64,000 bases of DNA from Cellvibrionaceae bacterium (GTDB lineage Bacteria > Pseudomonadota > Gammaproteobacteria > Pseudomonadales > Cellvibrionaceae): assembly GCA_050789445.1 (NCBI GenBank), contig JAILXR010000001.1, forward strand, positions 37,009 through 101,008, written 5' to 3'. Positions within the stretch are counted from its first letter, which is position 1; each line of letters opens with the position of its first letter. Below, in pieces: positions 7,454-35,121 of the stretch. A model generated the notes under the pieces. It was given only the letters and a program-made list of their open reading frames with translations. It had not been told where the DNA came from and did not search any database. The translations under genes were made by a program, and so were the position numbers.

Positions 7454-7617
7454 AACGATCAAGCAAAGCGTGTGGGCGCTTGCAGGATAGGCTAAAGAAC
7501 GAAAGAACCTATCAAAGCAAGTGTCCTAAAATTTATTTTAAGTCAGTTGACTTTGAGCAAGAAATTAGAGGCTTTGATGTACTGTCTTCGGGCAGATAAA
7601 GCTTCGCAACTTTTCAA

Positions 7618-9148
<1,531 letters not shown>

Positions 9149-9245
9149 AACGATACTTTACCTGTTCTGTAAACGCTCACACGCATTGCTTGATCAATTT
9201 TCAATAACTTCTAATGAGGTTGTTGGAGATGGCCGTGTTCGCCAT

Positions 9246-9322
<77 letters not shown>

Positions 9323-9339
9323 ACTACTTGAGAAAATAC

Positions 9340-9415
9340 GGGGCTATAGCTCAGCTGGGAGAGCGCTTGGTTTGCATCCAAGAGGTCTGCGGTTCGATCC
9401 CGCATAGCTCCACCA
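9340..9415 (+). tRNA. tRNA-Ala (anticodon TGC) in the 16S-23S spacer
   Basis: ggggctatagctcagctgggagagcgcttggttTGCatccaag...ctccacca, with a G3:U70-type acceptor. Confidence 0.9.
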
Positions 9416-9811
9416 ATTTCTACTGTTCTGTACAGTCTTTAGAAATGAGAAATAAACTGTTTTATCATTGTTGTTCATGATGAAGACATTTTATTTCTGG
9501 TTTTTAATCAGTCATTACCCTTAGCGGTATTGAGTTGTTTAACAAAATGGCAAAGTTTTAAGTTGTAATACTGCTGATTAATGGCAAGTGTGCTTATCAC
9601 GAATCAGTGAGTAGGACGAAGGCATACTAGTGAAAGCTAGAATGTTGGATGACTGCGCACGATTCTAACAAGCACACCTGTCCGGTGAATCACAATCATG
9701 TTGCAAAAAAGAGATACCCGTTGTGATTATCAAAGCGACACAGAATAGCGTGTAGTGAGATATGAACGACACTATCATTTGTAATAAGTCGTACAGTCGT
9801 TTGAATTATAT

Positions 9812-12698
<2,887 letters not shown>

Positions 12699-12865
12699 AT
12701 AATTGAGATGATTGTATGACGATTGTGACGGACAGTGTGCTTGAATGACATTGCCATTGAGAAACAGTAGAACAACTTAAATCATTGCCAAATTTGTGTT
12801 GAGATTGAAAAGTCTCTATCAGATACGAAAGTACTGATACTAGCGATTGCTAGAGCAAACCAGTT

Positions 12866-12985
12866 TGCCTGACGACCATAGCGAGTTGGAACCACCTGAT
12901 CCCATCTCGAACTCAGAAGTGAAACGACTTAGCGCCGATGGTAGTGTGGGGTTTCCCCATGTGAGAGTAGGACATCGTCAGGCTT
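12866..12985 (+). rRNA. rrf: 5S ribosomal RNA
   Basis: tgcctgacgaccatagcgagttggaaccacctgatcccatctcgaactcagaagtgaaacg...ccatgtgagagtaggacatcgtcaggct matches the 5S pattern. Confidence 0.93.
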
Positions 12986-22989: not shown

Positions 22990-24222
22990 ATGGCAGAAAC
23001 AATTATTAAAATTGACCTAAAAAAATCAGCCTACGAACACGACAATATTCACAATAGGTGGCATCCGGATATCCCGATGGTTTCTACGGTTAAGCCGGGT
23101 GATGATTTTATTATTGAATGTATGGATTGGACTGGCGGACAAATAAAAGATAATGATGATGCATCCGATGTAAGGGATGTGGATTTGTCGCAAGTACATT
23201 TCTTATCCGGACCTGTAGGTGTTGAAGGCGCCGAACCTGGAGACCTTCTCGTCGTTGACATCCTGGATATTGGTACTTTTAAAGAAAGTGAGTGGGGATT
23301 TAACGGCTTTTTCTCAAAACAAAATGGTGGCGGTTTTCTGACTGAACATTTTCCAGAAGCACAAAAAACAATTTGGGATTTTAACGGCATGTTTACTAAA
23401 TCTCGTCATGTTCCTGGTGTTGAATTTGCTGGATTAATACATCCGGGATTGATTGGTTGCTTACCCTCAAAAGAAATGTTGGAAGAGTGGAATAAAAGAG
23501 AAAAAGAATTGTTTGATACTGAACCTGATCGTGTACCGGGTTTAGCGAATCTACCTGATGCGTCTACGGCACATATGGGAAGAATGAAAGGTGATGCAAA
23601 AAAAGAAGCCGCAGCAGAAGGCGCTAGAACAGTTCCACCAAGAGAGCACGGCGGTAACTGTGATATTAAAGATTTGTCACGTGGTTCTAAAGTATATTTC
23701 CCAGTTTATGTGGAAGGCGGGGGCCTATCCGTAGGTGATTTGCATTTCAGCCAAGGTGATGGAGAAATTACATTCTGTGGTGCAATCGAAATGGCAGGTT
23801 GGATTCACCTTCGTGTTGAATTGATTAAAGATGGTATGTCGAAATACGCCATTAAAAATCCAATCTTTAAGCCAAGTCCTATCACACCACGTTACGATGA
23901 CTATTTAATTTTTGAAGGTATCTCAGTTGATGAACAAGGTAAGCAACATTATCTTGATGTTAATGTTGCGTATCGGCAAGCATGTTTGAATGCGATTGAA
24001 TACCTGAAAAAATTTGGCTATTCCGGAGCGCAAGCATACTCGCTACTAGGAACCGCACCTGTCCAAGGACACATTAGTGGTGTTGTTGACGTCCCTAACT
24101 CTTGTGCAACGCTTTGGTTGCCAACAGATATATTTGAGTTTGATGTTAAACCGAACGCTGATGGTCCAACAAAATACTTAGACGGAAGTGTTGAAGTTCC
24201 TTTGGCTCCGGATCTTAAGTAG
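22990..24222 (+). CDS. fmdA: formamidase / acetamidase (FmdA_AmdA family)
   Basis: 410 aa. The N-terminus reads ...HNRWHPDIPMV...PGD and the sequence resembles acetamidase/formamidase throughout. It lies immediately downstream of the amide ABC transporter and upstream of an FmdB-type zinc-ribbon gene, as in described fmd clusters. Confidence 0.8.
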   Translation: MAETIIKIDLKKSAYEHDNIHNRWHPDIPMVSTVKPGDDFIIECMDWTGGQIKDNDDASDVRDVDLSQVHFLSGPVGVEGAEPGDLLVVDILDIGTFKESEWGFNGFFSKQNGGGFLTEHFPEAQKTIWDFNGMFTKSRHVPGVEFAGLIHPGLIGCLPSKEMLEEWNKREKELFDTEPDRVPGLANLPDASTAHMGRMKGDAKKEAAAEGARTVPPREHGGNCDIKDLSRGSKVYFPVYVEGGGLSVGDLHFSQGDGEITFCGAIEMAGWIHLRVELIKDGMSKYAIKNPIFKPSPITPRYDDYLIFEGISVDEQGKQHYLDVNVAYRQACLNAIEYLKKFGYSGAQAYSLLGTAPVQGHISGVVDVPNSCATLWLPTDIFEFDVKPNADGPTKYLDGSVEVPLAPDLK

Positions 24223-24379: not shown

Positions 24380-24733
24380 ATGCCAGTGTATGATTATAAA
24401 TGTAGTGATCACGGCATATTTCATGAGTTGGCCTCGATTGCTGATCATTCAAAGCCTGCTGAATGTCCGAGTTGCAAAAAACTATCGGCGAGAGTCATCA
24501 TGTTTGCACCAAATGTTATGAAAATGGCACCTGAGAAAAAAGATGCCATTGAGCGAAATGAAGTAGCTAAGCATGAACCTCAACATTCAACAGCTGATAC
24601 TCGTGCAGAAAATGCTGAAAAACTCAAACATGGTTGCGGATGTGAACACAAAAAGAAACCATCAAAGCTGATGTATACAGCAGAGGGAAATAAGATGTTC
24701 CCTACAGCAAGACCTTGGATGATTAGTCATTAA
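24380..24733 (+). CDS. fmdB: FmdB-family putative regulatory zinc-ribbon protein
   Basis: 117 aa. The N-terminus MPVYDYKCSDHGIFHE...CPSCK is the characteristic FmdB Zn-ribbon. It is adjacent to fmdA. Confidence 0.7.
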   Translation: MPVYDYKCSDHGIFHELASIADHSKPAECPSCKKLSARVIMFAPNVMKMAPEKKDAIERNEVAKHEPQHSTADTRAENAEKLKHGCGCEHKKKPSKLMYTAEGNKMFPTARPWMISH

Positions 24734-24763: not shown

Positions 24764-25003
24764 CTAAATGCTAAGTAGTTGTTTGATCTCTTCAACTCGA
24801 TTTGTTAATTCTTGATTGAGATCTTTTGGCGTTAATTTAGAAATAATGTTTGCGATAACTCTCTTTTCATTGTCATCTACAACGCCATCTCTTAAGGCTA
24901 TACCTAAAAGCATGTCGAGTTCGTTTACATTTAACTTTCCGTCATCAGAAAAGCAATTTATTGATCGAAATGTCATTTCTAGGTAGTCTGTGTTTTCGCT
25001 CAT
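24764..25003 (-). CDS. small acidic protein, possibly TerB-like; last gene of the giant-ATPase operon
   Basis: 79 aa. The start is 11 nt after the stop of the upstream zinc-ribbon gene. Helical, with a DDGKLNVNELDMLLGIALRDGVVDDNEKRVIANI pattern reminiscent of TerB/DjlA-N domains. I recognise no definite family. Confidence 0.4.
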   Translation of the reverse strand: MSENTDYLEMTFRSINCFSDDGKLNVNELDMLLGIALRDGVVDDNEKRVIANIISKLTPKDLNQELTNRVEEIKQLLSI

Positions 25004-25013
25004 AGTGATTTCC

Positions 25014-25553
25014 TTAGTGTGTTTTAAGAAGTATAAATTGTTTTATGTGTTGTTTTTCGGGATGTTTTTCTAACCATATATAAAATTCTTCGACTTTAGA
25101 AAAGTCTTTTTCTCCTAGAATTTTTTCATATCGTGATTTTTCTATATTCCATTGACGCTGTTTTCTTAAGCCCTTTTGCCAAACCTCTGTTGTGATCTGA
25201 GCAAGCTGAGTGTGTATTCCTAGATTTTTGAGTAACCTCCACTCTCCTTTGTCTAACCAGACATCATCACAATTGGAACAAAGATCTAATTTGTTTTTTT
25301 GATCCAGGCCGATTCGATATTTAAGCATAATACGGCTACATTTAGAGCAAATAATGACTTTGTTAGAATCATCGCTCTCTATCGGTAAATTATTAATGTG
25401 AGGGGAAGTTTTAAGGTCTAAATTGGACGACCAAAACCTGAAGCTAAAAAGTGAAATTAAATTACCATGACAGCTTGAGCATTCTGCAGCGACTAACCCA
25501 GTTTCTAGTTCGGTTGCTTTTAATGTTGGCTCATTACATTTAGGACAGTTCAT
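25014..25553 (-). CDS. double zinc-ribbon protein (two zf-TFIIB-like CxxC...CxxC modules)
   Basis: 179 aa. Module 1 is CPKCN...CSSCHG. Module 2 is CSKCS...CSNCDDVWLDKGEW, which matches the bacterial CxxC-x-G-x-WLD-x-GEL zinc-ribbon pattern. Its start lies 19 nt after the giant gene's stop. Confidence 0.55.
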   Translation of the reverse strand: MNCPKCNEPTLKATELETGLVAAECSSCHGNLISLFSFRFWSSNLDLKTSPHINNLPIESDDSNKVIICSKCSRIMLKYRIGLDQKNKLDLCSNCDDVWLDKGEWRLLKNLGIHTQLAQITTEVWQKGLRKQRQWNIEKSRYEKILGEKDFSKVEEFYIWLEKHPEKQHIKQFILLKTH

Positions 25554-25571
25554 TTTATTTCTCTTAAATGT

Positions 25572-28500
25572 TTAAGATTCTTTTGGTGTTTTGAGACTTT
25601 TTTTTCGTGCAGTTGGTTTCGTAGATCTAGTCTTGTTAGAATTTTTTTTGTTATTCAGTCTAAGCTCATGTAATTGCTCAGAGACATCCTGCATTTTATC
25701 GTGAGTACGCAAATCAATTTCGAATTTTTTATCCATTGTGCGAATTAAAGGAAAAATACTGTTTTCCATCGTTTCTGCTAGTGCTTTTAATAGCTTATCA
25801 ATTCCCGGTACTGGCTGATTGATCACTTCGACCTTACTTTGATTACTTTGTAATATTTTGTTTATTGAATTGAGTGTTTGTTCTGTGATTACTAGCTCTT
25901 GATTGGCTTTTTCAATGTCGTTAGATTTTCTAGTGCTAGAAGCTACTGTTTTTTCAACACTTGCATTTAATAACTTAATGCCATCAACAAGATCAACTAA
26001 TTGCGAAACAACTCTAGTTCCTGTGTTTTGATCATCGCCTCCAATAGATTTGTTTCGGATGAAATCTTTTTTGATTTGCTCCCAGCGAATGGTTTGCTCT
26101 TTTGTCATTGTCCCTCTAAGTTCAGAAAGCTTTAACAGGTTATCTTCGGTTCCCGTTGTCAATAATTGCGCCTCTCCTAGATAGTGATCGTTAATCATCT
26201 GCTGCATTTCACTATCATTCATTACAGCATTAACTTTCTCAGCCATTTTATTCATATTTCGATAACTACCTTGTAGCTTGAATGTAGGCTCAGTCCTGTA
26301 CTTATCGTTTTGTGCTGCTGACGCAATGTATTGACGATTAATCTTTAAAATAACGTCTTGTATGACAAATAGTTTTTTGAGAACTGTTGTGATTTCATTG
26401 AGCTCAGCACCACTATATTGGTGCTGTAAATCAGTTGTGGGAATATTATTGCCTTTGGCAATTTTTACTAGTTTATAAAAATCATCCATGCTTCGAGTGG
26501 CGAGCGGGGCTAAGACTTTGTTAGAAGTTAGTGCGTTCTCAATATAACTGAGAGCGAATTGCTCATCCATTCCTCCAAGTACATCACCGAGGTTATAAAT
26601 ATCTGCTCGGTTTGCGAGCATGTCAGGTATTTTAAATAGCTCACCTGATTCGGTGTATGGATTACCCGCCATGACGACGCAGAATTTCCTACCCCTCATG
26701 TCATAGGTTTTTGTTTCTCCTTTCCAGACGCCTTCTATTCGACGCGTGCCATCACAAAGAGAAATAAACTTTTGCAAAAACTCTGGGTGAGTATGTTGTA
26801 TGTCATCTAGATATAGCATGACGTTATTACCCATCTCTAAAGCAAGGTTTAATTTTTCAAGCTCTTGCCGTGCCGTTGCGTTTGGTGCTTGCTCTGGATC
26901 GAGTGATAACACATCGTGTCCAAGCGACGGGCAATTGATTTTCATAAAAATCAAACCCAAACGACTTGCGACATATTCCATAAGTGTGGTTTTACCGTAC
27001 CCCGGCGGGGATATCATCATTAGCAGACCCATGAGATCTGTTCTTTTGTTTTCGCCAAGAGTCCCCATTTGTTTTGCAAGGTTGTCGCCAATAATCGGTA
27101 AATAGGAGTCATTAATTAACTGATTACGTACAAATGAACTCAGAGGTCTTGCTTTAAAAGATTCAAGTTTTAATTGTTGTTTTTCTTTTTGAGTTATTTC
27201 ATGACGTAAGTTTAAATATCTTTTGTACGCGGGTATGACTTCAAATTTATGCTTGTTCAGTTTCAATAAAAATGCATCAAGAGCGAAAGATAATTGTCGA
27301 TTCGTTATTAATGGATGATCCCCCATTAATCCCTCGACCGTTAGCTCTAAATCTACTTCTGTGTTTCTCCGGTCTAATCGCTCTTCGCTATTAATGAGCG
27401 CAATTGCCTCAGGGATATAGCGTTTTAACTTGGATAAGTTTTTCTCTTCTACCAAGGCATTGAGCCAAGCTGAGGTGAGCTTCCAGCGCTCAGCGGGCCA
27501 ACCAATCATTTCCTCAAGTGATCGTTGATACCTCTTCCATGTTTGATCGTCCATTGATTGTCGAAGTTCTTCGGTTAATCGAACAGCGTATTTACTAACA
27601 ATGAACTCAGTGCGATCTCTACTGAGTTCGGCAACTAAGTATTCTGATGCTGAGCGAATCTCAAGTGCAGATACAGTAATTGGATTTGATGAAATGAATG
27701 AAGAAATTGCTTGCTCAATCTCTTTTGCTAGTAACTGCTTTGCATCTGCGCTGGCAAAAACAGATTCCATCTGTCCAGCTGATTCAGCGCGAGTGGGCCA
27801 AGTTTTATAGGATAAAATATTTTTATTAGCTTCTTTTGGGGTATGGCTTTGATGAAATTCTTTTTTAATATTAGCCCAGAATATTTGGGCGATAGCGCGG
27901 CTCATGGGGTTGAAATACAAGAGGTCTGCACTATCCAGTGCCGGAATTAATTTTTGTAAAATAAGGACTGAATCATGATCATGAATACCTTTTTCATAGC
28001 CTTCTTTATATCTTGGAGTCGCAAAGTCTTTAGCTATGTTATTAAGCTCGGTACTATCTAATAGCGCATGCTTGAGGATATCAGCGTTTAATCCATGTTG
28101 ATGATTTTGTGCCGCCTGTAGAATTGAAAAAGCTAAATATTCCGAGCGGTAAACATTTTCAGTTTCAGACTCTAACGAAAGATTCCAGTATGGCTGCAAT
28201 TTATTAAGCTCGTCATTATCGATAACTTCAAAAAAATCTGTTCCGGTTAAGTGGGCACTTAGTTTTCCATTTCTTGGTATTAATGTTAAATCGAGCTCTT
28301 GGGTATTCACAGAAAATTTATGATTAGGCCCCAGTTTAATGACGTTACCACCGTCCTCAAAGATATCTGTTTTATCACGCAGTGCACGAAGTGCCTGCTC
28401 TTTTGCGGCTTTAAACTGCGACTCTATATCGTCAGCTTTGACTGAGCTGTTTAATTCTCGTAATTGTTCAACGAGGTCTCGTACTTTTAAAACCAGAGCG

Positions 28501-30932
28501 TCAGAGGCAAAGTAAGTGTTGAGTGTGTCAGGATCAGTGAATTTAAGAGATCTTTTTTCAATACTTTTTACTATTCGACTAGCGGCATCTTCCACATTTT
28601 GCGCTTTACGTTGTTGTTCATCTAGAAGTTGCTGTTTGTGAGATTCGAACGATTCATATATCTCCTCACGTTTATCCATGATGTCTGAAAGAAATTGATC
28701 GAAATCACTAAATTGGCTTTCTAACTCTTCTAGTTGAATTAATAATCGAGATAACTGTTCATCACAACGGTCAGGGGTTGTAGATAGGCCGAGGGCGTTT
28801 GTAATTGTTTGTGAGAATAATTTAAATTGTGCACCAAATTGCGCAATCGCTTCTTCTGATCCTAAACTTTTTTGCTTTATTTTAGCTTCGGCTTTACTTT
28901 GATTTAATTTTGAATACACATGAGATATAGAATCGATGATGCGGGTACGAACAGTTGCATCATCGACTTTTAGTGTGCTCATTAATTCAGATAAAAGGTC
29001 TAGTCCGGCAGCTGAAGACTCAATCGCCTCAATTAAAGGGAGCAATTCTGCATTGGAGTGACTTGCCTCTACATCGTTATTTAATAAATTAATTTTTTCT
29101 AAGTATGGATCAAGTGCATTTTCTGAGGATAAAAAAATCACAGTCTTTTGGCTTAGCTCTTCTTCCTCTTTAATTAATTGTTCTTCTAATTGCTTAATGC
29201 GATTTAAATTAATGTAACGATAATCTTTTATTGTCGTAAGGTGACCTCGTTGCCGTCTAATTCGGCTGAGAGTATCAACGTATTCTTCAGCCGTCTCGTC
29301 ATTGCTGATACGTATTGCTCGAATAATAGCGTCTTGTTCATCCTCGGTTTCTGCCATCGTTTTTGCAGATTGTTGTTTGATGCTTTCGACTTTTTCAAAT
29401 TCATCGATTACGAGTTCTGCAGTCACCGCAATGCTTTTCAGCGAGTCGCTTATAGGCGAAGCTTCTTTTTCTTCTAGCCAATAATAGGCATCAAATAATT
29501 TTTGCGGGCTTTGGCTTAATTCTTCATACAATCGAACAGAAACGGATTGATTATCTATCGCTCGACAAATACTAAAAATATCCGACACACCACGCACTAA
29601 CTCTGCGTTACCAATACGCCCAAAAAATGTTTGGCTGCTAGGCGCCTTGCTTGCAAATTCATCGCTTACATAAGGCGTCTGCCAAAGTTGCATTGGATGA
29701 ACTCGTGTCGGCTCATTCTCTGCGGAAAATATAACAATGTTTCCTTCGTCAGATAGGGCATAACCATGCCCTAGAATTGGATTTTGTAAGGATTTATTTA
29801 TAAGGTTGTAGGCGAGTAGGGCGACAACACCATCGACTGGCTCATAAAAAACATAAAGTACATCTTCGCCATTGGGTGAGCGGATCGCTCGTTTAAAGCG
29901 GAGTCCAACCGTATTTGTTTCAAACGTTTTATGTTCGCCAGTTTGTAGGTAGTATCCATCAGGAAAGATAATTCCGTGATCTTCTGGTAGTTGAATACAG
30001 GATTGACCGATAGCATCGATGCGTAATATATCTTTTGTAAATGGGTTGTAAATTAGATGGCGCCAAACATCTTCTCTGTAAGGCAATATTTTAAGTAATA
30101 TCAATTCGCCGACAGACGCGTATTGAACCTCAACATCATCCAGTGATTGAGTTGAATCTTCTACTGGCTCTCTATAAATACCCAAGCCGTCTTCCGTGTT
30201 GTTTTCGATTTTTATGGTAAGATCGCCCGCCAAAGTTTCAACAAAGACGGTATCTAAAATATTAATGTGTGCATGACGACCATGAACAATATCGTCTCGT
30301 TTACATGTATGCCATTCAAAATCGTAGGAGGGTGGTAACTGGATATCGCGTTCACCACGATTATCGATATACTTTTCAACAGAGCCATCAGCCGACAGCG
30401 ACCACCTAAAGACGCGAATGTCTTCCGGCCTTTCTCCAATTTGAAAACCTGCGAGTAACTTGCCATGGTTGATGGTAAGTTCGACTAAGCGAGTGTGTTT
30501 GTAATATCTATAGAGCTCTTCAAAATCATTAGTAAAACTTTGATCAGATAAAAAAGTATTTTGAATCGCAGCGGGTTCCATTTCAATATCATCACCACTT
30601 TGATCAAGTGTAAAAAGCGCAAAGACATCATTGATCTTTGTTTCTTTTTTTAATCCGATGAAAACATTAAAACCAAAGAGCAGGTAGGGTCCTACTTGAA
30701 CGATGTCTCTGGCGATACAATTGTTTTCTGTTCTTACTCGAACACGTGCTTCGACGCTCATGTCTGAGCTACCGAACTCTGCTAGCCGTCCTTCATTTAA
30801 TTCGTTGACCAGTGATTTAAGTTGCTTACCTTGTTTGATTAAGCGTTTACTTATGATCTCGTATGCACCGCCTTCTTCAACGGCATTATCCACTATATTA
30901 TTGGCGTCAGATGACTTTTCCTGTTGTGTCAT
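25572..30932 (-). CDS. 1,786-aa protein with a single AAA+ (AAA_5/MoxR-dynein-like) ATPase core; the N-terminal, coiled-coil and C-terminal regions are unassigned
   Basis: One uninterrupted ORF. The P-loop is ISPPGYGKTTLMEY (encoded at about 26988-27017). Walker B is VMLYLDDIQH. The sensor-1-like motif is CVVMAGNPYTESGELFKIPDMLANRADIY. The ~700 aa before the ATPase are heptad-rich/helical (many E/L/K/Q runs) and the first ~450 aa appear mixed/beta. I recognise no named family. Confidence 0.8.
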   Translation of the reverse strand: MTQQEKSSDANNIVDNAVEEGGAYEIISKRLIKQGKQLKSLVNELNEGRLAEFGSSDMSVEARVRVRTENNCIARDIVQVGPYLLFGFNVFIGLKKETKINDVFALFTLDQSGDDIEMEPAAIQNTFLSDQSFTNDFEELYRYYKHTRLVELTINHGKLLAGFQIGERPEDIRVFRWSLSADGSVEKYIDNRGERDIQLPPSYDFEWHTCKRDDIVHGRHAHINILDTVFVETLAGDLTIKIENNTEDGLGIYREPVEDSTQSLDDVEVQYASVGELILLKILPYREDVWRHLIYNPFTKDILRIDAIGQSCIQLPEDHGIIFPDGYYLQTGEHKTFETNTVGLRFKRAIRSPNGEDVLYVFYEPVDGVVALLAYNLINKSLQNPILGHGYALSDEGNIVIFSAENEPTRVHPMQLWQTPYVSDEFASKAPSSQTFFGRIGNAELVRGVSDIFSICRAIDNQSVSVRLYEELSQSPQKLFDAYYWLEEKEASPISDSLKSIAVTAELVIDEFEKVESIKQQSAKTMAETEDEQDAIIRAIRISNDETAEEYVDTLSRIRRQRGHLTTIKDYRYINLNRIKQLEEQLIKEEEELSQKTVIFLSSENALDPYLEKINLLNNDVEASHSNAELLPLIEAIESSAAGLDLLSELMSTLKVDDATVRTRIIDSISHVYSKLNQSKAEAKIKQKSLGSEEAIAQFGAQFKLFSQTITNALGLSTTPDRCDEQLSRLLIQLEELESQFSDFDQFLSDIMDKREEIYESFESHKQQLLDEQQRKAQNVEDAASRIVKSIEKRSLKFTDPDTLNTYFASDALVLKVRDLVEQLRELNSSVKADDIESQFKAAKEQALRALRDKTDIFEDGGNVIKLGPNHKFSVNTQELDLTLIPRNGKLSAHLTGTDFFEVIDNDELNKLQPYWNLSLESETENVYRSEYLAFSILQAAQNHQHGLNADILKHALLDSTELNNIAKDFATPRYKEGYEKGIHDHDSVLILQKLIPALDSADLLYFNPMSRAIAQIFWANIKKEFHQSHTPKEANKNILSYKTWPTRAESAGQMESVFASADAKQLLAKEIEQAISSFISSNPITVSALEIRSASEYLVAELSRDRTEFIVSKYAVRLTEELRQSMDDQTWKRYQRSLEEMIGWPAERWKLTSAWLNALVEEKNLSKLKRYIPEAIALINSEERLDRRNTEVDLELTVEGLMGDHPLITNRQLSFALDAFLLKLNKHKFEVIPAYKRYLNLRHEITQKEKQQLKLESFKARPLSSFVRNQLINDSYLPIIGDNLAKQMGTLGENKRTDLMGLLMMISPPGYGKTTLMEYVASRLGLIFMKINCPSLGHDVLSLDPEQAPNATARQELEKLNLALEMGNNVMLYLDDIQHTHPEFLQKFISLCDGTRRIEGVWKGETKTYDMRGRKFCVVMAGNPYTESGELFKIPDMLANRADIYNLGDVLGGMDEQFALSYIENALTSNKVLAPLATRSMDDFYKLVKIAKGNNIPTTDLQHQYSGAELNEITTVLKKLFVIQDVILKINRQYIASAAQNDKYRTEPTFKLQGSYRNMNKMAEKVNAVMNDSEMQQMINDHYLGEAQLLTTGTEDNLLKLSELRGTMTKEQTIRWEQIKKDFIRNKSIGGDDQNTGTRVVSQLVDLVDGIKLLNASVEKTVASSTRKSNDIEKANQELVITEQTLNSINKILQSNQSKVEVINQPVPGIDKLLKALAETMENSIFPLIRTMDKKFEIDLRTHDKMQDVSEQLHELRLNNKKNSNKTRSTKPTARKKSLKTPKES

Positions 30933-31016
30933 TGTCTTTGTCCTTCCAGCAAATGAAGAGAATAAATGTGGGGTGAGGAGATGTAGATAACCTCACTCCG
31001 TATTTATTGAGATTGG

Positions 31017-32984
31017 CTATTCTTTATCAGCCGCTTCTTTGCTTTTTGTACCGGACGAAGTACCGCTAGGTGTTTGAGTCACTTTGTTGACTAAAGCCGC
31101 AACAGTACTACTTTTATCCGCTAACCCATCAATCGCTTTACCGATAGAAAGTGATTTGGCGAAATTATTGAAGAAGTGATCTTCACCGCCGACGATATCG
31201 ATCTTCGCTCGTTGCAATGCGGTCGCAAGGACTTCTGCGTTTTCTTTCGCGATATCTTTTCCTGCTTCAATCGAAGCTAGTACTTCTTTCAGTGCAGTTT
31301 CTAAGCCCATTCGATATTCTTCATGCGCTCTTGCATCGTCACTCATCGTACCCATCGCTTCGAATTTATCCATCAAGCCATCCGCTTCTGCTTTAAATTG
31401 TTCGCGAGTCACTTCCGCTCCAGACATGCCAATTTCTTTGTTAGCTTTTGCTTCAGAGCTACCTTTAGCTGCAATAACATCAGCTTCAGATGTTCCAACT
31501 GAGCGGTGAGCTGCGGCTTCTGCATCGCCTTTAGCTTGTATGACGTGCGCTTCCGCAACACCTTCCTTCTCTAGTGCATCTGCTTTAGCTTCTTGTACCT
31601 TCGCATCAGCAAGCCCTGGTGCAGCACGTTCAGCTTGCACACCTTCAGAAAGCTTTTTCATTGCATCAGCTTCTTTCGCAGTAGCTTCCAATTTAGCTTG
31701 TGCAATTGTCGTTATTTCTACTGCTTTATGCTGAGCCGATAACTCTTCAGCTTCAGCAGCTTTGACTAATTTAACTTTATCTTCTTCGGCGATTGCTTCA
31801 GCCGAAAGGACTTGTACTTGTTTCAGTCGATCCGCTTCTGAGACTTCTCGTACCTCTTTGATTTTTTCTTCTTCGATAGCAACTGTTTTGTCGACAGCGA
31901 CACGCTCTCTGATAACGTTTGCGATTTCTTTCTTCTCAACTTCGACGGCTTTTTCAGCCTCGATTCTTTGTAGTTCTACCTCTCTTTCGCGAGAAACAAT
32001 CTCTAGATCCTTGGCTCTAGTAACTTTTTCGATTTCGATGACAACTGCACGCTGTCTATTTTGCTCTGCAACTTCTATTTCTCTTTTTTGGTTTTCTGTT
32101 TGTACAGCAAGATCTTGTTCTACAAAAATCGTTGTAGACTCAGCCTTTTTTCGTTCTTCTTCCTGCACTTTAATTGTTTCGGCTTCTTCTCTGGCTTGAA
32201 TTGTAGCGACTTCTCTTGCCTGACGAGCTTCAGCATCTTTCTGTTGTCGTTCCAGTTCGAGCATAGCCTCAACGGTTTCGACATTCTTCTTTTTGATGGC
32301 AAGCTCTTCATCTTTCTCAAGTATATTTGTACGAACATTTTGAGTTGCTGTTAATTCGGTAATCTTTTTAATACCTTCAGAGTCCAAAATATTGCTTGGG
32401 TCTAATGATACTTTTGGTGTTTGTTCTAGGTAATCGATTGCAACGTCTTCAAGAACATAACCATTTAGATCATTGCCGATGACCTCAATAATTTTATCTC
32501 TAAATTCTTGTCTGTTTTCAAAGAGCTGAACAAATTCTATTTGCTTGCCAACTGTTTTTAATGCCTCAGAAAATTTTGCATTAAAAAGATCATTGACTGC
32601 GTCTCGATCAGAAGCTCGGCTGGCACCTAAAGATTTTGCAACTTTGAGAACATCTTCAGGTGTTTCATTAACTCTTAAATAAAAGGCAACTGTGATGTCT
32701 GCTCTCATATTATCTTGGCAGATCAACCCATCTTTACCTCTTCGGTCAACCTCCATTGTGATCAGAGAAATTCGCATTAATTCCTTTTTATGTATAACAG
32801 GGATGATCCAGGAACCTGTGAAAAATACTTTTGGTCTTGAACTTAAATCATTTTTAATTAAAGCAACGCCTTGCTCGACTTTGACATAAAAGGCTTTGAA
32901 TAAGGCAGCCATAACGACTAAAAAAAGAAAAAAACCACCAACAAAAACCAGCAACCCCATGAAACTAGGTAAATACTCAGACAT
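31017..32984 (-). CDS. flotillin / SPFH (band-7) domain protein, YqiK-like, with a long E/A/K-rich coiled-coil tail
   Basis: 655 aa. An N-terminal TM helix is followed by an SPFH domain (VEQGVALIKNDLSS...MRISLITMEVD...GLICQDNMRADITVAFYLRV). The coiled coil is extensive (EAEKAVEVEKKEIANVIRERVAVDKT...). It is paired with an upstream YqiJ/NfeD-like gene. Confidence 0.85.
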   Translation of the reverse strand: MSEYLPSFMGLLVFVGGFFLFLVVMAALFKAFYVKVEQGVALIKNDLSSRPKVFFTGSWIIPVIHKKELMRISLITMEVDRRGKDGLICQDNMRADITVAFYLRVNETPEDVLKVAKSLGASRASDRDAVNDLFNAKFSEALKTVGKQIEFVQLFENRQEFRDKIIEVIGNDLNGYVLEDVAIDYLEQTPKVSLDPSNILDSEGIKKITELTATQNVRTNILEKDEELAIKKKNVETVEAMLELERQQKDAEARQAREVATIQAREEAETIKVQEEERKKAESTTIFVEQDLAVQTENQKREIEVAEQNRQRAVVIEIEKVTRAKDLEIVSREREVELQRIEAEKAVEVEKKEIANVIRERVAVDKTVAIEEEKIKEVREVSEADRLKQVQVLSAEAIAEEDKVKLVKAAEAEELSAQHKAVEITTIAQAKLEATAKEADAMKKLSEGVQAERAAPGLADAKVQEAKADALEKEGVAEAHVIQAKGDAEAAAHRSVGTSEADVIAAKGSSEAKANKEIGMSGAEVTREQFKAEADGLMDKFEAMGTMSDDARAHEEYRMGLETALKEVLASIEAGKDIAKENAEVLATALQRAKIDIVGGEDHFFNNFAKSLSIGKAIDGLADKSSTVAALVNKVTQTPSGTSSGTKSKEAADKE

Positions 32985-33001
32985 AATGAACTCCTTTCTG
33001 T

Positions 33002-33691
33002 TTATATTTTGTTTTCAAATTCCGACGCTGAAACGACACGATATACATGTTCGTTCTCGATATATTCGAGAAGTGCTACCCGATCACCCCGATTAAACAC
33101 CTCTCCCTCGTAAGACCTAACTTTGACAATAAGTCCTGCACCACCATCTTCAATAGTGGCCTCACCAAATTGCTGGTCTACGCGTGTTGTCCTGACCACT
33201 GCAATTTGCCCAACTATGTTTCTCTCTACCTGCTGATTTGCAGATTTAAAAATAGGTCTTAATGGTTTGACGATGAGAGATGTGACAATCGCCGAAAGAT
33301 ATAGGGATCCAATAAAGATAGGTATCCCTGCTAAGAATTGAATTACCCCATCAGGAATAAATGGAAAAATAAAATGTACTGCGTAATAACAAATAAACCA
33401 ACCAATTAGGGACATCAATGAAACGAGAACCGGGATTGGTATTCCATTAAGGCCTAATCTAACTAATAATCCTGCTAGCACATTTAGATTTGAGAGGGAG
33501 TCTCCTGCATCAACATCTAAATCGGCTTCAGGGATGTCAAAGTTTAGAAAATCCATGTCTGCTAGTCCTAATACTGCTAAACATCCATACAAAAAGCAGA
33601 GTATTAAGAAAAAGGAAAAAATAACGGTTGGAAACGATGTAATGTTTAGATAAAACGGATCCATCGCTTCCGTTAAAAAAATGGCAAACAT
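33002..33691 (-). CDS. NfeD-like inner-membrane protein (YqiJ-like; flotillin partner with a C-terminal OB-fold)
   Basis: 229 aa. TM helices are followed by a C-terminal beta-rich segment (GQIAVVRTTRVDQQFGEATIEDGGAGLIVKVRSYEGEVFNRGDRVALLEY) typical of NfeD/YuaF OB-fold domains. It sits immediately upstream of the flotillin, as in the yqiJK arrangement. Confidence 0.7.
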   Translation of the reverse strand: MFAIFLTEAMDPFYLNITSFPTVIFSFFLILCFLYGCLAVLGLADMDFLNFDIPEADLDVDAGDSLSNLNVLAGLLVRLGLNGIPIPVLVSLMSLIGWFICYYAVHFIFPFIPDGVIQFLAGIPIFIGSLYLSAIVTSLIVKPLRPIFKSANQQVERNIVGQIAVVRTTRVDQQFGEATIEDGGAGLIVKVRSYEGEVFNRGDRVALLEYIENEHVYRVVSASEFENKI

Positions 33692-33737
33692 GTGTAGCTC
33701 CTTTTAATTGTTATTTTTCGTCAGCCGTTTTTTTAGG

Positions 33738-34433
33738 TTATTTTTCTGCCCGACTTTTTTTAATTCTTTCTAGTACATCGCTAGCTTTGTGCGTACTTGA
33801 TGTTATACCTGCTTCTTCAAGTTTGTTTTTTAAAGAACTATCGACGTTTTCTTCAGAAAGTTCATTGGCGACTTTCATCTGAGCATCTTTTAGAGTTTGT
33901 TTTTCTTTAAGCCGCTCTAGTGAATCCATTGCTGTTCTCAGTTTCGAGTTGGTTCCGCTATGTCTTTCGGCGACAGCTGCTTGTGCCCGCTGAACATTTT
34001 CTGTCGCTTTAACAGTGTCAACTTGTTGCTTAAGTCGCTTTATTGTTAATTCAGTTTGCCTAATGGTCTCGCGCAGTTTATTTACGTTTTCAGTAAAGCC
34101 ATCACGCAATTTTTTCTCATCATCTAACTGGTTTTCAAGATCTGCAATTTTAGTGGCGACCTCTAGGGCTAAAGCCTCATTGTCAGCCTCTAACGCTTTG
34201 ACAGCATATCCTTCATGTTCTTGGATTGCGGACTCAATTTTTTTAACTTTTTCTTCCGAAAGCTTTTGTCGAGCCATAATTGTGGCCAGTCCATCTTTTG
34301 ACTGTTTTAGTTCTTCACCAGCGTCTCGAACTTCTTGATCTAAAATTCGTAAAGCTTGTGTGTCGACGATAGCTTCACCAGCTTCATTTACACCACCTTT
34401 TAACGCGGTTATCATTTTTGCCCATACGTTCAT
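33738..34433 (-). CDS. PspA/IM30 (Vipp1, ESCRT-III-like) family protein, YjfJ-like
   Basis: 231 aa, all helical coiled-coil. The N-terminus MNVWAKMITALKGGVNEAGEAIVDTQALRILDQEVRDAGEEL and its length match the PspA/IM30 family. No pspBC or pspF neighbours are present. Confidence 0.8.
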   Translation of the reverse strand: MNVWAKMITALKGGVNEAGEAIVDTQALRILDQEVRDAGEELKQSKDGLATIMARQKLSEEKVKKIESAIQEHEGYAVKALEADNEALALEVATKIADLENQLDDEKKLRDGFTENVNKLRETIRQTELTIKRLKQQVDTVKATENVQRAQAAVAERHSGTNSKLRTAMDSLERLKEKQTLKDAQMKVANELSEENVDSSLKNKLEEAGITSSTHKASDVLERIKKSRAEK

Positions 34434-34443
34434 GTTTGTTCTC

Positions 34444-35070
34444 CTAAGCTTCTATTGCTATGTTAAGAAACTCGCTATATGCCTCTGTCGCTTGTATGAC
34501 ATTACTCGCTAAAGTTTCGATTTCGAAAATCACATTTGAAAGTGTCGATATGGAGCTAAGTGCGCCGAACATGTGATAGTAATCCTGTCCGTCTCCAATT
34601 GTGTCTAAGCTTATCGTTGAGAGAGGGAAATACTTATGTGTTCTCAGTATTGCTTTATTAAATCGATCAACGTCATTGACGGCAGTGACAGGCCATAAAA
34701 CAGATTCCGCAATTATCTGCTCACCAGAAACTGTCAAAAAAACTGGGAGGTCTCCATACTCGTGCATCATTATATGCAAAGCTGGTTCTACGCCGTCTAT
34801 AAGTTCGGCGGAAGACTGCCCGCTTTGGAGTAGATCTGACTCTAGGAGTTCTTTGTAAAGAGTTTCAGTCGTCCAAGCTTTATCGTTGCTAATCATACTT
34901 GCTCCTTTGTTTATTGTAAGGCCCCCGCGGGCTGTTCGAAGTTCTTTTTCCATAATGCTTAACGTTTTTGAGTTTTCAGGAAGAATCCATACCTCTTTTT
35001 TAATAAGGCCTTGTTCGCGAAGACGCTTTCGAAATTCTCTTTGGTAGTGTGCTGATGACTTTGGTTTCAT
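34444..35070 (-). CDS. hypothetical protein, first gene of the operon (basic N-terminus; possibly YjfI/DUF2170-like)
   Basis: 208 aa. It lies 10 nt upstream of the PspA-family gene. The N-terminus is basic (KSSAHYQREFRKRLREQGLIKK) and could be an RHH/DNA-binding segment. In E. coli the PspA paralogue yjfJ follows yjfI. Homology is not verifiable from sequence alone. Confidence 0.3.
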   Translation of the reverse strand: MKPKSSAHYQREFRKRLREQGLIKKEVWILPENSKTLSIMEKELRTARGGLTINKGASMISNDKAWTTETLYKELLESDLLQSGQSSAELIDGVEPALHIMMHEYGDLPVFLTVSGEQIIAESVLWPVTAVNDVDRFNKAILRTHKYFPLSTISLDTIGDGQDYYHMFGALSSISTLSNVIFEIETLASNVIQATEAYSEFLNIAIEA

Positions 35071-35087
35071 GGTGGAATAATCTAACT

Positions 35088-35121
35088 TGTTACATGTGAG
35101 ATGTCAATATGTTACATGTGA
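35088..35121 (-). promoter_or_regulatory. candidate operator: two direct copies of TGTTACATGTGA (core palindrome ACATGT) spaced 22 bp apart, 18-53 bp upstream of the operon's first start codon
   Basis: Copies at 35088-35099 and 35110-35121. Exact 12/12 repeat. The spacing is about two helical turns. It lies in the divergent intergenic region 35071-35407. Confidence 0.3.

Follow-up and report, generated by a model that had tools for sequence, protein, structure and literature searches.

A Cellvibrionaceae orthologue of the Pseudomonas aeruginosa bac operon joins PspA and flotillin genes to the gene of a giant AAA+ protein

The window considered here is a stretch of 64,000 nucleotides (nt) from contig JAILXR010000001.1 of a Cellvibrionaceae bacterium. 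Between its positions 24764 and 35070, seven open reading frames (ORFs) lie one behind the other on the minus strand and encode a YjfI-like protein, a PspA/IM30 protein, a putative YqiJ/NfeD-like membrane protein, a YqiK-type flotillin, a giant AAA+ protein, a double zinc-ribbon protein and a small TerB-like protein (Table 1). Together they form the counterpart, in a Cellvibrionaceae bacterium, of the bac operon of Pseudomonas aeruginosa, with bacABCDE followed by two accessory genes. An earlier note on this DNA, made from the sequence alone, had placed seven minus-strand genes here with gaps of 10–84 nt; the ORFs lie exactly where it put them, and the gaps, in gene order from the 10 nt between bacA and bacB, measure 10, 46, 17, 84, 18 and 10 nt. 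A consensus scan of all six gaps revealed no terminator-like hairpin, the only minus-strand terminator-like sites falling within the giant ORF, and the GC content of the operon region (0.36–0.42) is that of its surroundings. Short gaps, the lack of hairpins between genes and one promoter-like site upstream are consistent with one transcript, and the seven genes are almost certainly one operon. Evidence from reverse transcription PCR (RT-PCR) for a single transcript comes from P. aeruginosa bacABCDEF only (Wallart et al. 2024, PMC10948618). The view of the earlier note that the genes form one unit is also borne out by conserved gene linkage across homologous loci.

Table 1. Features of the bac-type operon in the window and of homologous loci used for comparison (L numbers denote homologous loci).
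Feature	Position	Strand	Evidence or remark
Promoter/operator	35079..35121	-	sigma70-like -35/-10 + two palindromes
bacA, YjfI/DUF2170 (CesT-like chaperone fold) + basic N-terminal domain	34444..35070	-	Pfam, NCBIfam, PDB 8q8o
bacB, PspA/IM30 (ESCRT-III superfamily), YjfJ type	33738..34433	-	Pfam PspA_IM30, E. coli YjfJ
bacC, putative YqiJ/YuaF-like (short NfeD2-type) inner-membrane protein	33002..33691	-	hhalign vs YqiJ, transmembrane scan
bacD, YqiK-type flotillin (SPFH2)	31017..32984	-	BLASTP vs E. coli YqiK
bacE, 1,786-aa soluble DUF3686/DUF7902/AAA+ giant	25572..30932	-	Pfam
Accessory double zinc-ribbon protein	25014..25553	-	Pfam Zn_ribbon_TFIIB
Accessory 79-aa TerB-like protein	24764..25003	-	Pfam TerB, family members
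P. aeruginosa paired palindromes	L083:9950-9990		
bacA upstream regions with palindrome pair	loci among L002-L062		
GACAT-N3-ATGTC palindrome upstream of bacA	L022, L035, L044, L050, L052, L054, L059, L061, L064, L067		
Examples of accessory genes downstream of giant	L008:15253-16509, L072:14920-15486, L042:16084-17202, L003:15725-16888		

The earlier note knew of no described system of this kind, and in this respect it is incorrect. According to Ravi et al. (mSystems 2024; preprint 2020; PMC11237479), comparative genomics defines an operon class made up of genes for a CesT-like YjfI, PspA, a YqiJ-like protein, a band-7/flotillin protein and a novel AAA+ protein, with an optional gene of the PLD (HKD) family, and abbreviated band-7/YqiJ(+AAA+) operons without PspA are more widespread. 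In P. aeruginosa, the ‘biofilm-associated cluster’ was first delimited as PA3732-PA3729 by Macé et al. 2008 (PMC2587700), who found that the PspA-like PA3731 protein is induced by osmotic shock and that the PA3731 mutant is defective in biofilm formation, swarming and rhamnolipid production and attenuated in mice. Wallart et al. extended the cluster to the six genes bacABCDEF (PA14_16140-16200), obtained RT-PCR products across every junction, reported BacB-F to be up 6-13 fold in a bacA transposon mutant and found the BacA structure to be CesT-like (PMC10948618). The bac ATPase gene of P. aeruginosa is also recurrently mutated in cystic-fibrosis isolates. The role in envelope stress that the earlier note had considered fits these published data on the orthologue. 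Its description of the locus as yjfIJ and yqiJK fused with a giant gene is apt, but the arrangement is widespread and ancient in Gamma- and Betaproteobacteria and is not peculiar to the window genome.

Wallart et al. give no identity for BacE and BacF (PMC10948618). The P. aeruginosa locus (L083), whose contig was retrieved through its 206-aa BacA, encodes in order a DUF2170 protein (206 aa), PspA (231 aa), proteins of 213 and 688 aa, a DUF3686/DUF7902/AAA protein of 1,746 aa and a PLDc_2 protein of 230 aa. The 1,746-aa protein shares 56% identity with the window giant over 1,760 residues. The published RT-PCR junction primers map within the gene of the 1,746-aa protein and to the opening codons of the PLD gene, so BacE (PA14_16190/PA3728) is the giant ATPase and BacF is the PLD-like protein. 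As printed in the supplement of PMC10948618, primer PA14_16180/90_R carries one extra A; without it, the primer falls inside bacE of L083, at the TENNCIA codons, with one mismatch. A metagenome scan with a PA14 RT-PCR primer gave no match.

The gene annotations of the earlier note proved essentially right, though not all with the same firmness. The window BacA matches Pfam DUF2170 (E 8e-52) and the NCBIfam equivalog ‘biofilm formation regulator BacA’ (311 bits, cutoff 300), its residues 64-203 align with PDB 8q8o, the 146-aa P. aeruginosa BacA that was crystallised (E 1.6e-37), and it is 36% identical to E. coli YjfI. BacB belongs to PspA_IM30 (E 1.5e-44), shares 34% identity with E. coli YjfJ from end to end (232 aa, E 2e-32) and matches Vipp1/PspA structures (E ~1e-4). 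The canonical pspF-pspABC system is not represented: PspF, PspB and PspC domains were found neither in the operon nor in adjacent genes. BacC is the weakest gene call of the operon, and its putative identity as a YqiJ/NfeD-like protein is moderately supported. Taken alone, the window protein matches Pfam YqiJ_N below threshold (E 0.019) and E. coli YqiJ by BLASTP at E 0.001, while the profile of its 26-member family aligns with E. coli YqiJ over 136 columns (hhalign probability 90%, E 1.5e-6); when 27 YqiJ-like proteins were scanned with the Pfam YqiJ models, E. coli YqiJ itself was the sole match. A transmembrane (TM) scan gives BacC three to four TM segments followed by a soluble C-terminal domain. 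Hinderhofer et al. (PMC2636767) regard YqiJ and YuaF as minimal NfeD homologues that co-evolve with SPFH2 flotillins.

BacD is 28% identical to E. coli YqiK over 459 aa (BLASTP, E 7e-45) and carries one N-terminal TM segment (residues 11-29) and a long helical region rich in Glu, Ala and Lys. It is detected neither by Pfam Band_7 and Flot, even at E<=10, nor by NCBIfam FloT, so that automated annotation will leave the BacD-type flotillin family ‘hypothetical’. Among the operon products, TM segments are restricted to the flotillin and the YqiJ-like protein, and BacE has none. The accessory zinc-ribbon protein is soluble and consists of two CxxC...CxxC ribbons, with Zn_ribbon_TFIIB matching in two stretches (E 1.9e-8), and a helical tail. 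The TerB-like call is weak for the window protein alone, which matches Pfam TerB at E 0.0037, below the gathering score; within its family, 6 of 11 members match TerB at E<0.01 (best 5.8e-5), and the alignment shares the motif DGxLxxxEL...RDGVVDxNEKRVL.

The giant BacE begins with DUF3686 (residues 38-484, nt 29481-30821, E 3e-201) and DUF7902 (residues 605-688, nt 28869-29120), continues with a long helical middle and then carries one MoxR/midasin-like AAA+ module at about residues 1290-1600 (nt 26133-27065). The single AAA_5-type core that the earlier note had recognised agrees with the profile matches, in which one module is hit by AAA, AAA_22 and AAA_5. The catalytic motifs were counted in an alignment of 71 diverse full-length family members. 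Walker A (SPPGYGKTT), Walker B (hhhhDD; residues 1376-1377 and nt 26802-26807 in the window) and the sensor-1 residue Asn1424 are each kept in 70 of them, and Arg1442, Arg1546 and Arg1558 in all 71, a degree of conservation that points to a nucleotide-binding site kept active by selection.

An AlphaFold2 model of residues 1180-1660 built with 13 close homologues was discarded (predicted local distance difference test, pLDDT, of 50), and a model of residues 1230-1640 built on a diverse alignment of 73 sequences reached a pLDDT of 89.9 and a predicted template modelling (pTM) score of 0.83. In the PDB, Foldseek ranks CbbQ and NorQ, both MoxR ATPases, first (E 2.6e-8 and ~1e-7), with RuvB and MCM after them and midasin and dynein structurally next after the MoxR types. 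The model has a beta-hairpin before sensor 1 (model residues 169-182), as in the pre-sensor-1 insert clade, so the predicted fold places the AAA+ module of BacE in this clade, closest to its MoxR members. Direct searches were less telling: when the flotillin, YqiJ-like and giant proteins were each compared as single sequences with the PDB, nothing meaningful emerged, the full-length BacE family profile matched NVL, RuvB and Rix7 at the level of Walker A only, and the profile of the N-terminal DUF3686 region matched nothing in the PDB. Ravi et al. have proposed that DUF3686 is a beta-propeller (PMC11237479).

BacE homologues are numerous, with more than 5,000 at E<1e-5, and identity reaches 65-70% across several gammaproteobacterial families; the window protein has a counterpart of 100% identity among the NCBI proteins, from a Cellvibrionaceae metagenome-assembled genome (MAG). 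Its N-terminal 700 residues match 905 clusters (50% identity), and full-length members measure 1,500-2,000 aa. The family goes by the names ‘DNA repair ATPase’ (NCBI) and ‘ATPase involved in DNA repair’ (Pfam DUF3686 description) in the databases. The former name is probably misleading.

The neighbourhood of bacE was followed in other genomes with iterative hidden Markov model searches of six-frame ORFs. With one genome per species, at least 586 genomes carry a BacE relative, and the counts below refer to the best 80 of these at least 586 loci. The giant-flotillin loci span Proteobacteria, Myxococcota, Actinobacteria and one Clostridia MAG. At 75/75 loci with upstream DNA, the giant gene is immediately preceded on its own strand by a flotillin gene (the contigs of the remaining five end at the 5' end of the giant gene), and in 72 loci the gene just before that of the flotillin is YqiJ-like. 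Only 38 of the 80 possess the BacA-PspA pair; all of these are from Gamma- or Betaproteobacteria, and in four the pair is divergently transcribed. Loci of Actinobacteria, Myxococcota, Stenotrophomonas and Xenorhabdus/Providencia do not have it. The constant core therefore consists of the YqiJ-like protein, the flotillin and the giant ATPase, and PspA and BacA are an add-on to it.

The 3' end of the operon is variable, with PLD genes in 13 loci, rhomboid in 11, TelA in 11, double zinc-ribbon in 12, TerB-like in 10 and MscS-like in 1. The zinc-ribbon and TerB-like genes follow the giant gene in some loci and stand between it and the flotillin gene in others, and this variable position within the operon speaks for their being optional members of the system. 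All genes in this accessory pool have a membrane or envelope-stress theme.

The conserved promoter region suggests how the operon may be controlled. Some 60 residues precede DUF2170 in the window BacA, the first ~45 of them basic (residues 1-50, nt 34921-35070), and the motif KSSAHYQRxFRxRLREQGLxKKEVWILPE within this N-domain is almost invariant in an alignment that covers Cellvibrionaceae, Pseudomonas, Sedimenticola, Gilliamella and Betaproteobacteria. The N-domain is included in the current NCBI protein of P. aeruginosa (206 aa) and in the NCBIfam model, and absent from the crystallised protein and from the old 16-kDa annotation, so that published work on BacA may have used an N-terminally truncated protein. 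Its sole match is a weak one to NCBIfam ‘plasmid repression protein F’ (E 0.008).

Just upstream of bacA, the consensus scan places a strong sigma70-like promoter, TTGACA-17-TAGATT, with the -35 box at 35107-35102 and the -10 box at 35084-35079 of the minus strand. Two palindrome copies, TTACATGTGA and TCACATGTAA, flank the -35 box at 35112-35121 and 35090-35099, 22 nt apart, and the whole window has no other exact TTACATGTRA site. Paired palindromes with an ACATGT core recur at about -49 and -27 from the start codon at all 24 other loci whose BacA has the N-domain, plus P. aeruginosa. The 14 loci whose BacA lacks the N-domain have no TTACATGTRA pair (0/14), and 10 of them, with a short BacA of 134-166 aa, have a GACAT-N3-ATGTC palindrome instead. 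This covariation of N-domain and palindromes, together with the derepression seen in the bacA mutant, suggests that BacA may be a DNA-binding autorepressor whose chaperone domain could sense PspA, and the operon probably has a simple autorepression switch. In several Burkholderiales loci, pspA and the yqiJ-like gene are separated by an additional ORF of about 115 aa (L064:6201-6551), which has the look of a tandem ribbon-helix-helix protein and matches no Pfam family; it may be an alternative regulator.

The -10 box ends 8-9 nt before the bacA ATG, with no Shine-Dalgarno sequence, and related loci share this geometry, L007 for example having TATAAT 8 nt before the ATG. From this spacing, the bacA transcript is probably leaderless or nearly so. 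Palindromes, N-domain covariation and a near-leaderless mRNA are not mentioned in Wallart et al. (PMC10948618). Inspection by eye of the region upstream of the window bacA for a sigma54 -24/-12 site gave only a poor TGGCGC...TCCT candidate, and the published proposal of such a promoter is not adopted for this genome.

Taken together, these observations favour a reading in which the operon, as a bac orthologue, works as a flotillin-scaffold remodelling system with a PspA add-on and BacA autorepression, to which we assign a probability of roughly 60%. Homology, topology and gene linkage point to a core that would be a membrane-anchored scaffold, composed of a flotillin anchored by its N-terminus, with its bulk in the cytoplasm, and a polytopic NfeD-type YqiJ-like partner. 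Soluble BacE would attach to this scaffold by way of DUF3686, at its N-terminus, and its helical regions, and its single MoxR/midasin-type AAA+ ring would assemble, remodel or disassemble the flotillin lattice, or clients held by it, in an ATP-dependent manner, as its fold and the strict gene linkage lead us to propose. In Gamma- and Betaproteobacteria, the addition of PspA and the CesT-like chaperone BacA would couple the scaffold to membrane sealing or repair, if the known biochemistry of PspA/Vipp1 applies. BacA would shut the operon off when its N-domain binds the paired TTACATGTRA palindromes straddling the -35 box; repression is genetically documented in P. aeruginosa, and covariation points to the DNA binding. 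Under stress, the chaperone domain of BacA may engage PspA instead and so relieve repression, a partner switch like that of PspA and PspF which the same covariation would allow. The zinc-ribbon and TerB-like proteins would be interchangeable accessory subunits or adaptors from a pool that includes the PLD, rhomboid, TelA and MscS-like proteins.

Several observations sit uneasily with this scaffold-remodelling reading. Walker B of BacE ends in Asp-Asp and not Asp-Glu, so that hydrolysis may be slow and the module may be less a motor than a nucleotide switch. MoxR ATPases, which measure about 250-500 aa, normally act with a VWA-domain partner, and none was found among the representatives of recurrent neighbour families that were scanned with Pfam, a set that does not comprise every ORF. 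The N-domain of BacA matches no known DNA-binding family and no Pfam family. Macé et al. and Wallart et al. proposed a sigma54 promoter, whereas the one seen in the window is sigma70-like. Finally, the P. aeruginosa paFlo3 (bacD) mutant forms about 20% less biofilm and has no other clear phenotype (PMC13086221).

A bolder version of the scaffold-remodelling reading would make BacE an ATP-driven remodeller dedicated to a bacterial flotillin (SPFH2)/NfeD scaffold, the first of its kind, with PspA and BacA as a later add-on and with a hitherto unrecognised DNA-binding domain of BacA that sits on the paired TTACATGTRA operators and is released by switching to PspA. In this full form, the claim is tentative and on balance doubtful. 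If it were true, flotillins would gain a defined energy-consuming regulator, and to our knowledge flotillin dynamics have not been explained in any organism.

An anti-phage, abortive-infection role was weighed against scaffold remodelling, in which the scaffold and PspA would sense phage damage to the envelope and the giant would activate effectors of the PLD, rhomboid or TelA/TerB type. PA3728-PA3732 are indeed induced in every phage-infected P. aeruginosa sample (PMC12041424), but the canonical Psp system is also phage-induced, through the secretin pIV for example, as part of a general reaction to membrane stress. The accessory genes can be exchanged much as defence effectors are, giant ATPases are common in defence systems and the distribution across phyla is patchy; yet the window operon has no obvious toxic effector, no PADLOC 2.0 model matched it apart from low-scoring coiled-coil hits of PspA to SMC-like models, and 65-70% identity of the giant across gammaproteobacterial families looks more like vertical housekeeping inheritance than fast turnover. 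The genomic setting speaks against it too, as the neighbours are housekeeping genes, no integrase is present, GC content does not stand out from the flanking DNA and the nearest relative is syntenic, and we regard a defence function as unlikely.

The earlier note had likened the ATPase to Vps4 acting on ESCRT-III, and the corresponding alternative is a disassemblase whose AAA+ ring threads and recycles PspA polymers. PspA and the ATPase do share one unit in the window and are co-transcribed in P. aeruginosa, the ATPase motifs are intact, and Ravi et al. (PMC11237479) raise ESCRT-like analogies for associations of PspA with AAA+ proteins. Obligate co-occurrence of the ATPase with an ESCRT-III-superfamily protein nevertheless fails, as PspA accompanies it in fewer than half of the 80 loci and the pair is divergently transcribed in four, whereas its constant partners are the flotillin and the YqiJ-like protein. 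The domain make-up differs as well from the classical-clade-plus-MIT pattern of Vps4, in that Pfam finds no MIT domain in BacE and the modelled AAA+ fold is MoxR-like rather than Vps4-like. The analogy is weakened on each of these points, and a Vps4-type function is improbable; the evidence narrows the question to an ATPase that belongs with the flotillin rather than with PspA.

The idea that the giant is a DNA-repair ATPase in an incidental neighbourhood of membrane genes, which draws on the names given by Pfam and NCBI and on weak RuvB profile matches confined to the Walker A region, is rejected as highly improbable, since DUF3686 was not found in the literature searched and the name has no traceable experimental basis, Pfam detects no nuclease, helicase or DNA-binding domain, and the strict flotillin/YqiJ linkage across phyla, the co-regulation with the Bac proteins (PMC10948618) and the best structural neighbours, which are chaperone-type MoxR ATPases, all point elsewhere.

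The surroundings of the operon are ordinary chromosomal genes, in line with the earlier note. On one side lie ABC ATPases, the FmdA formamidase and a convergent small zinc-ribbon gene, and on the other a divergent ABC-2 transporter, an acyl carrier protein (ACP) and a ketosynthase (KS); an rrn operon occupies 7615-12983 and a tRNA cluster 51.5-53.7 kb of the window. Only one other genome, the Cellvibrionaceae MAG that is its closest relative, has syntenic flanks. The FmdA-type formamidase gene (22990-24222) is followed by a gene for a 117-aa Zn_ribbon_8 protein (24380-24733). The end of this gene and the TerB-like stop codon are 30 nt apart, so that two transcription units converge with almost no spacer between them.

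The operon joins three membrane-organising systems that are usually studied apart, an ESCRT-III-like PspA, a flotillin/NfeD pair and an AAA+ machine, and each has relatives with which it can be compared. HflK/C-FtsH, an SPFH cage enclosing an AAA+ machine, may serve as a working analogy in that an SPFH scaffold is paired, in genetics and in function, with an AAA+ ATPase at the inner membrane (cited in PMC13086221). BacE differs from FtsH in having neither a TM segment nor a protease domain and in being MoxR-like by its predicted fold instead of belonging to the classical FtsH type, and the bulk of the window flotillin is predicted to be cytoplasmic, not periplasmic. The MoxR proteins CbbQ, NorQ and RavA, in turn, are unlike the 1,786-aa BacE, which carries about 1,250 aa of unrelated N-terminal domains, shares only 13-17% identity with them and has the Asp-Asp form of Walker B. 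E. coli K-12 has homologues of BacA to BacD in YjfI, YjfJ, YqiJ and YqiK, but yjfIJ and yqiJK are separate loci there, yjfIJ continues into yjfKLMC (a polyamine-type context), no giant ATPase gene follows yqiK, and YjfI (133 aa) has no N-terminal domain.

The pspA-ydjGHI(L) operon of B. subtilis, as described in PMC11237479, resembles the window operon in combining PspA, an SPFH/band-7 protein and a double zinc-ribbon protein; by its two-ribbon make-up, the accessory protein of the window seems to echo YdjG. It differs from the window operon in that a giant ATPase, a YjfI/CesT-like protein and a YqiJ-type partner are all missing from it. For the operon class of Ravi et al., the accessible text of the paper (PMC11237479) makes no mention of zinc-ribbon, TerB-like, rhomboid or TelA accessories, nor of a MoxR-type ATPase fold, the BacA N-domain or the operator. 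The closest comparison is with P. aeruginosa bacABCDEF (PA3732-PA3727 / PA14_16140-16200), whose counterpart genes affect biofilm formation, swarming, rhamnolipid production and virulence. The first five genes are the same in order and family, and both operons have the N-terminal domain of BacA and paired TTACATGTRA palindromes at the promoter. Unlike the P. aeruginosa operon, that of the window, whose host is a marine-type Cellvibrionaceae MAG, has no PLD-like bacF and carries the zinc-ribbon and TerB-like genes at its 3' end instead. The window thus adds another bac orthologue with a different accessory tail and not a new kind of system, and the present analysis frames more precisely the central question of how a giant, apparently MoxR-like ATPase acts on flotillin/PspA assemblies.

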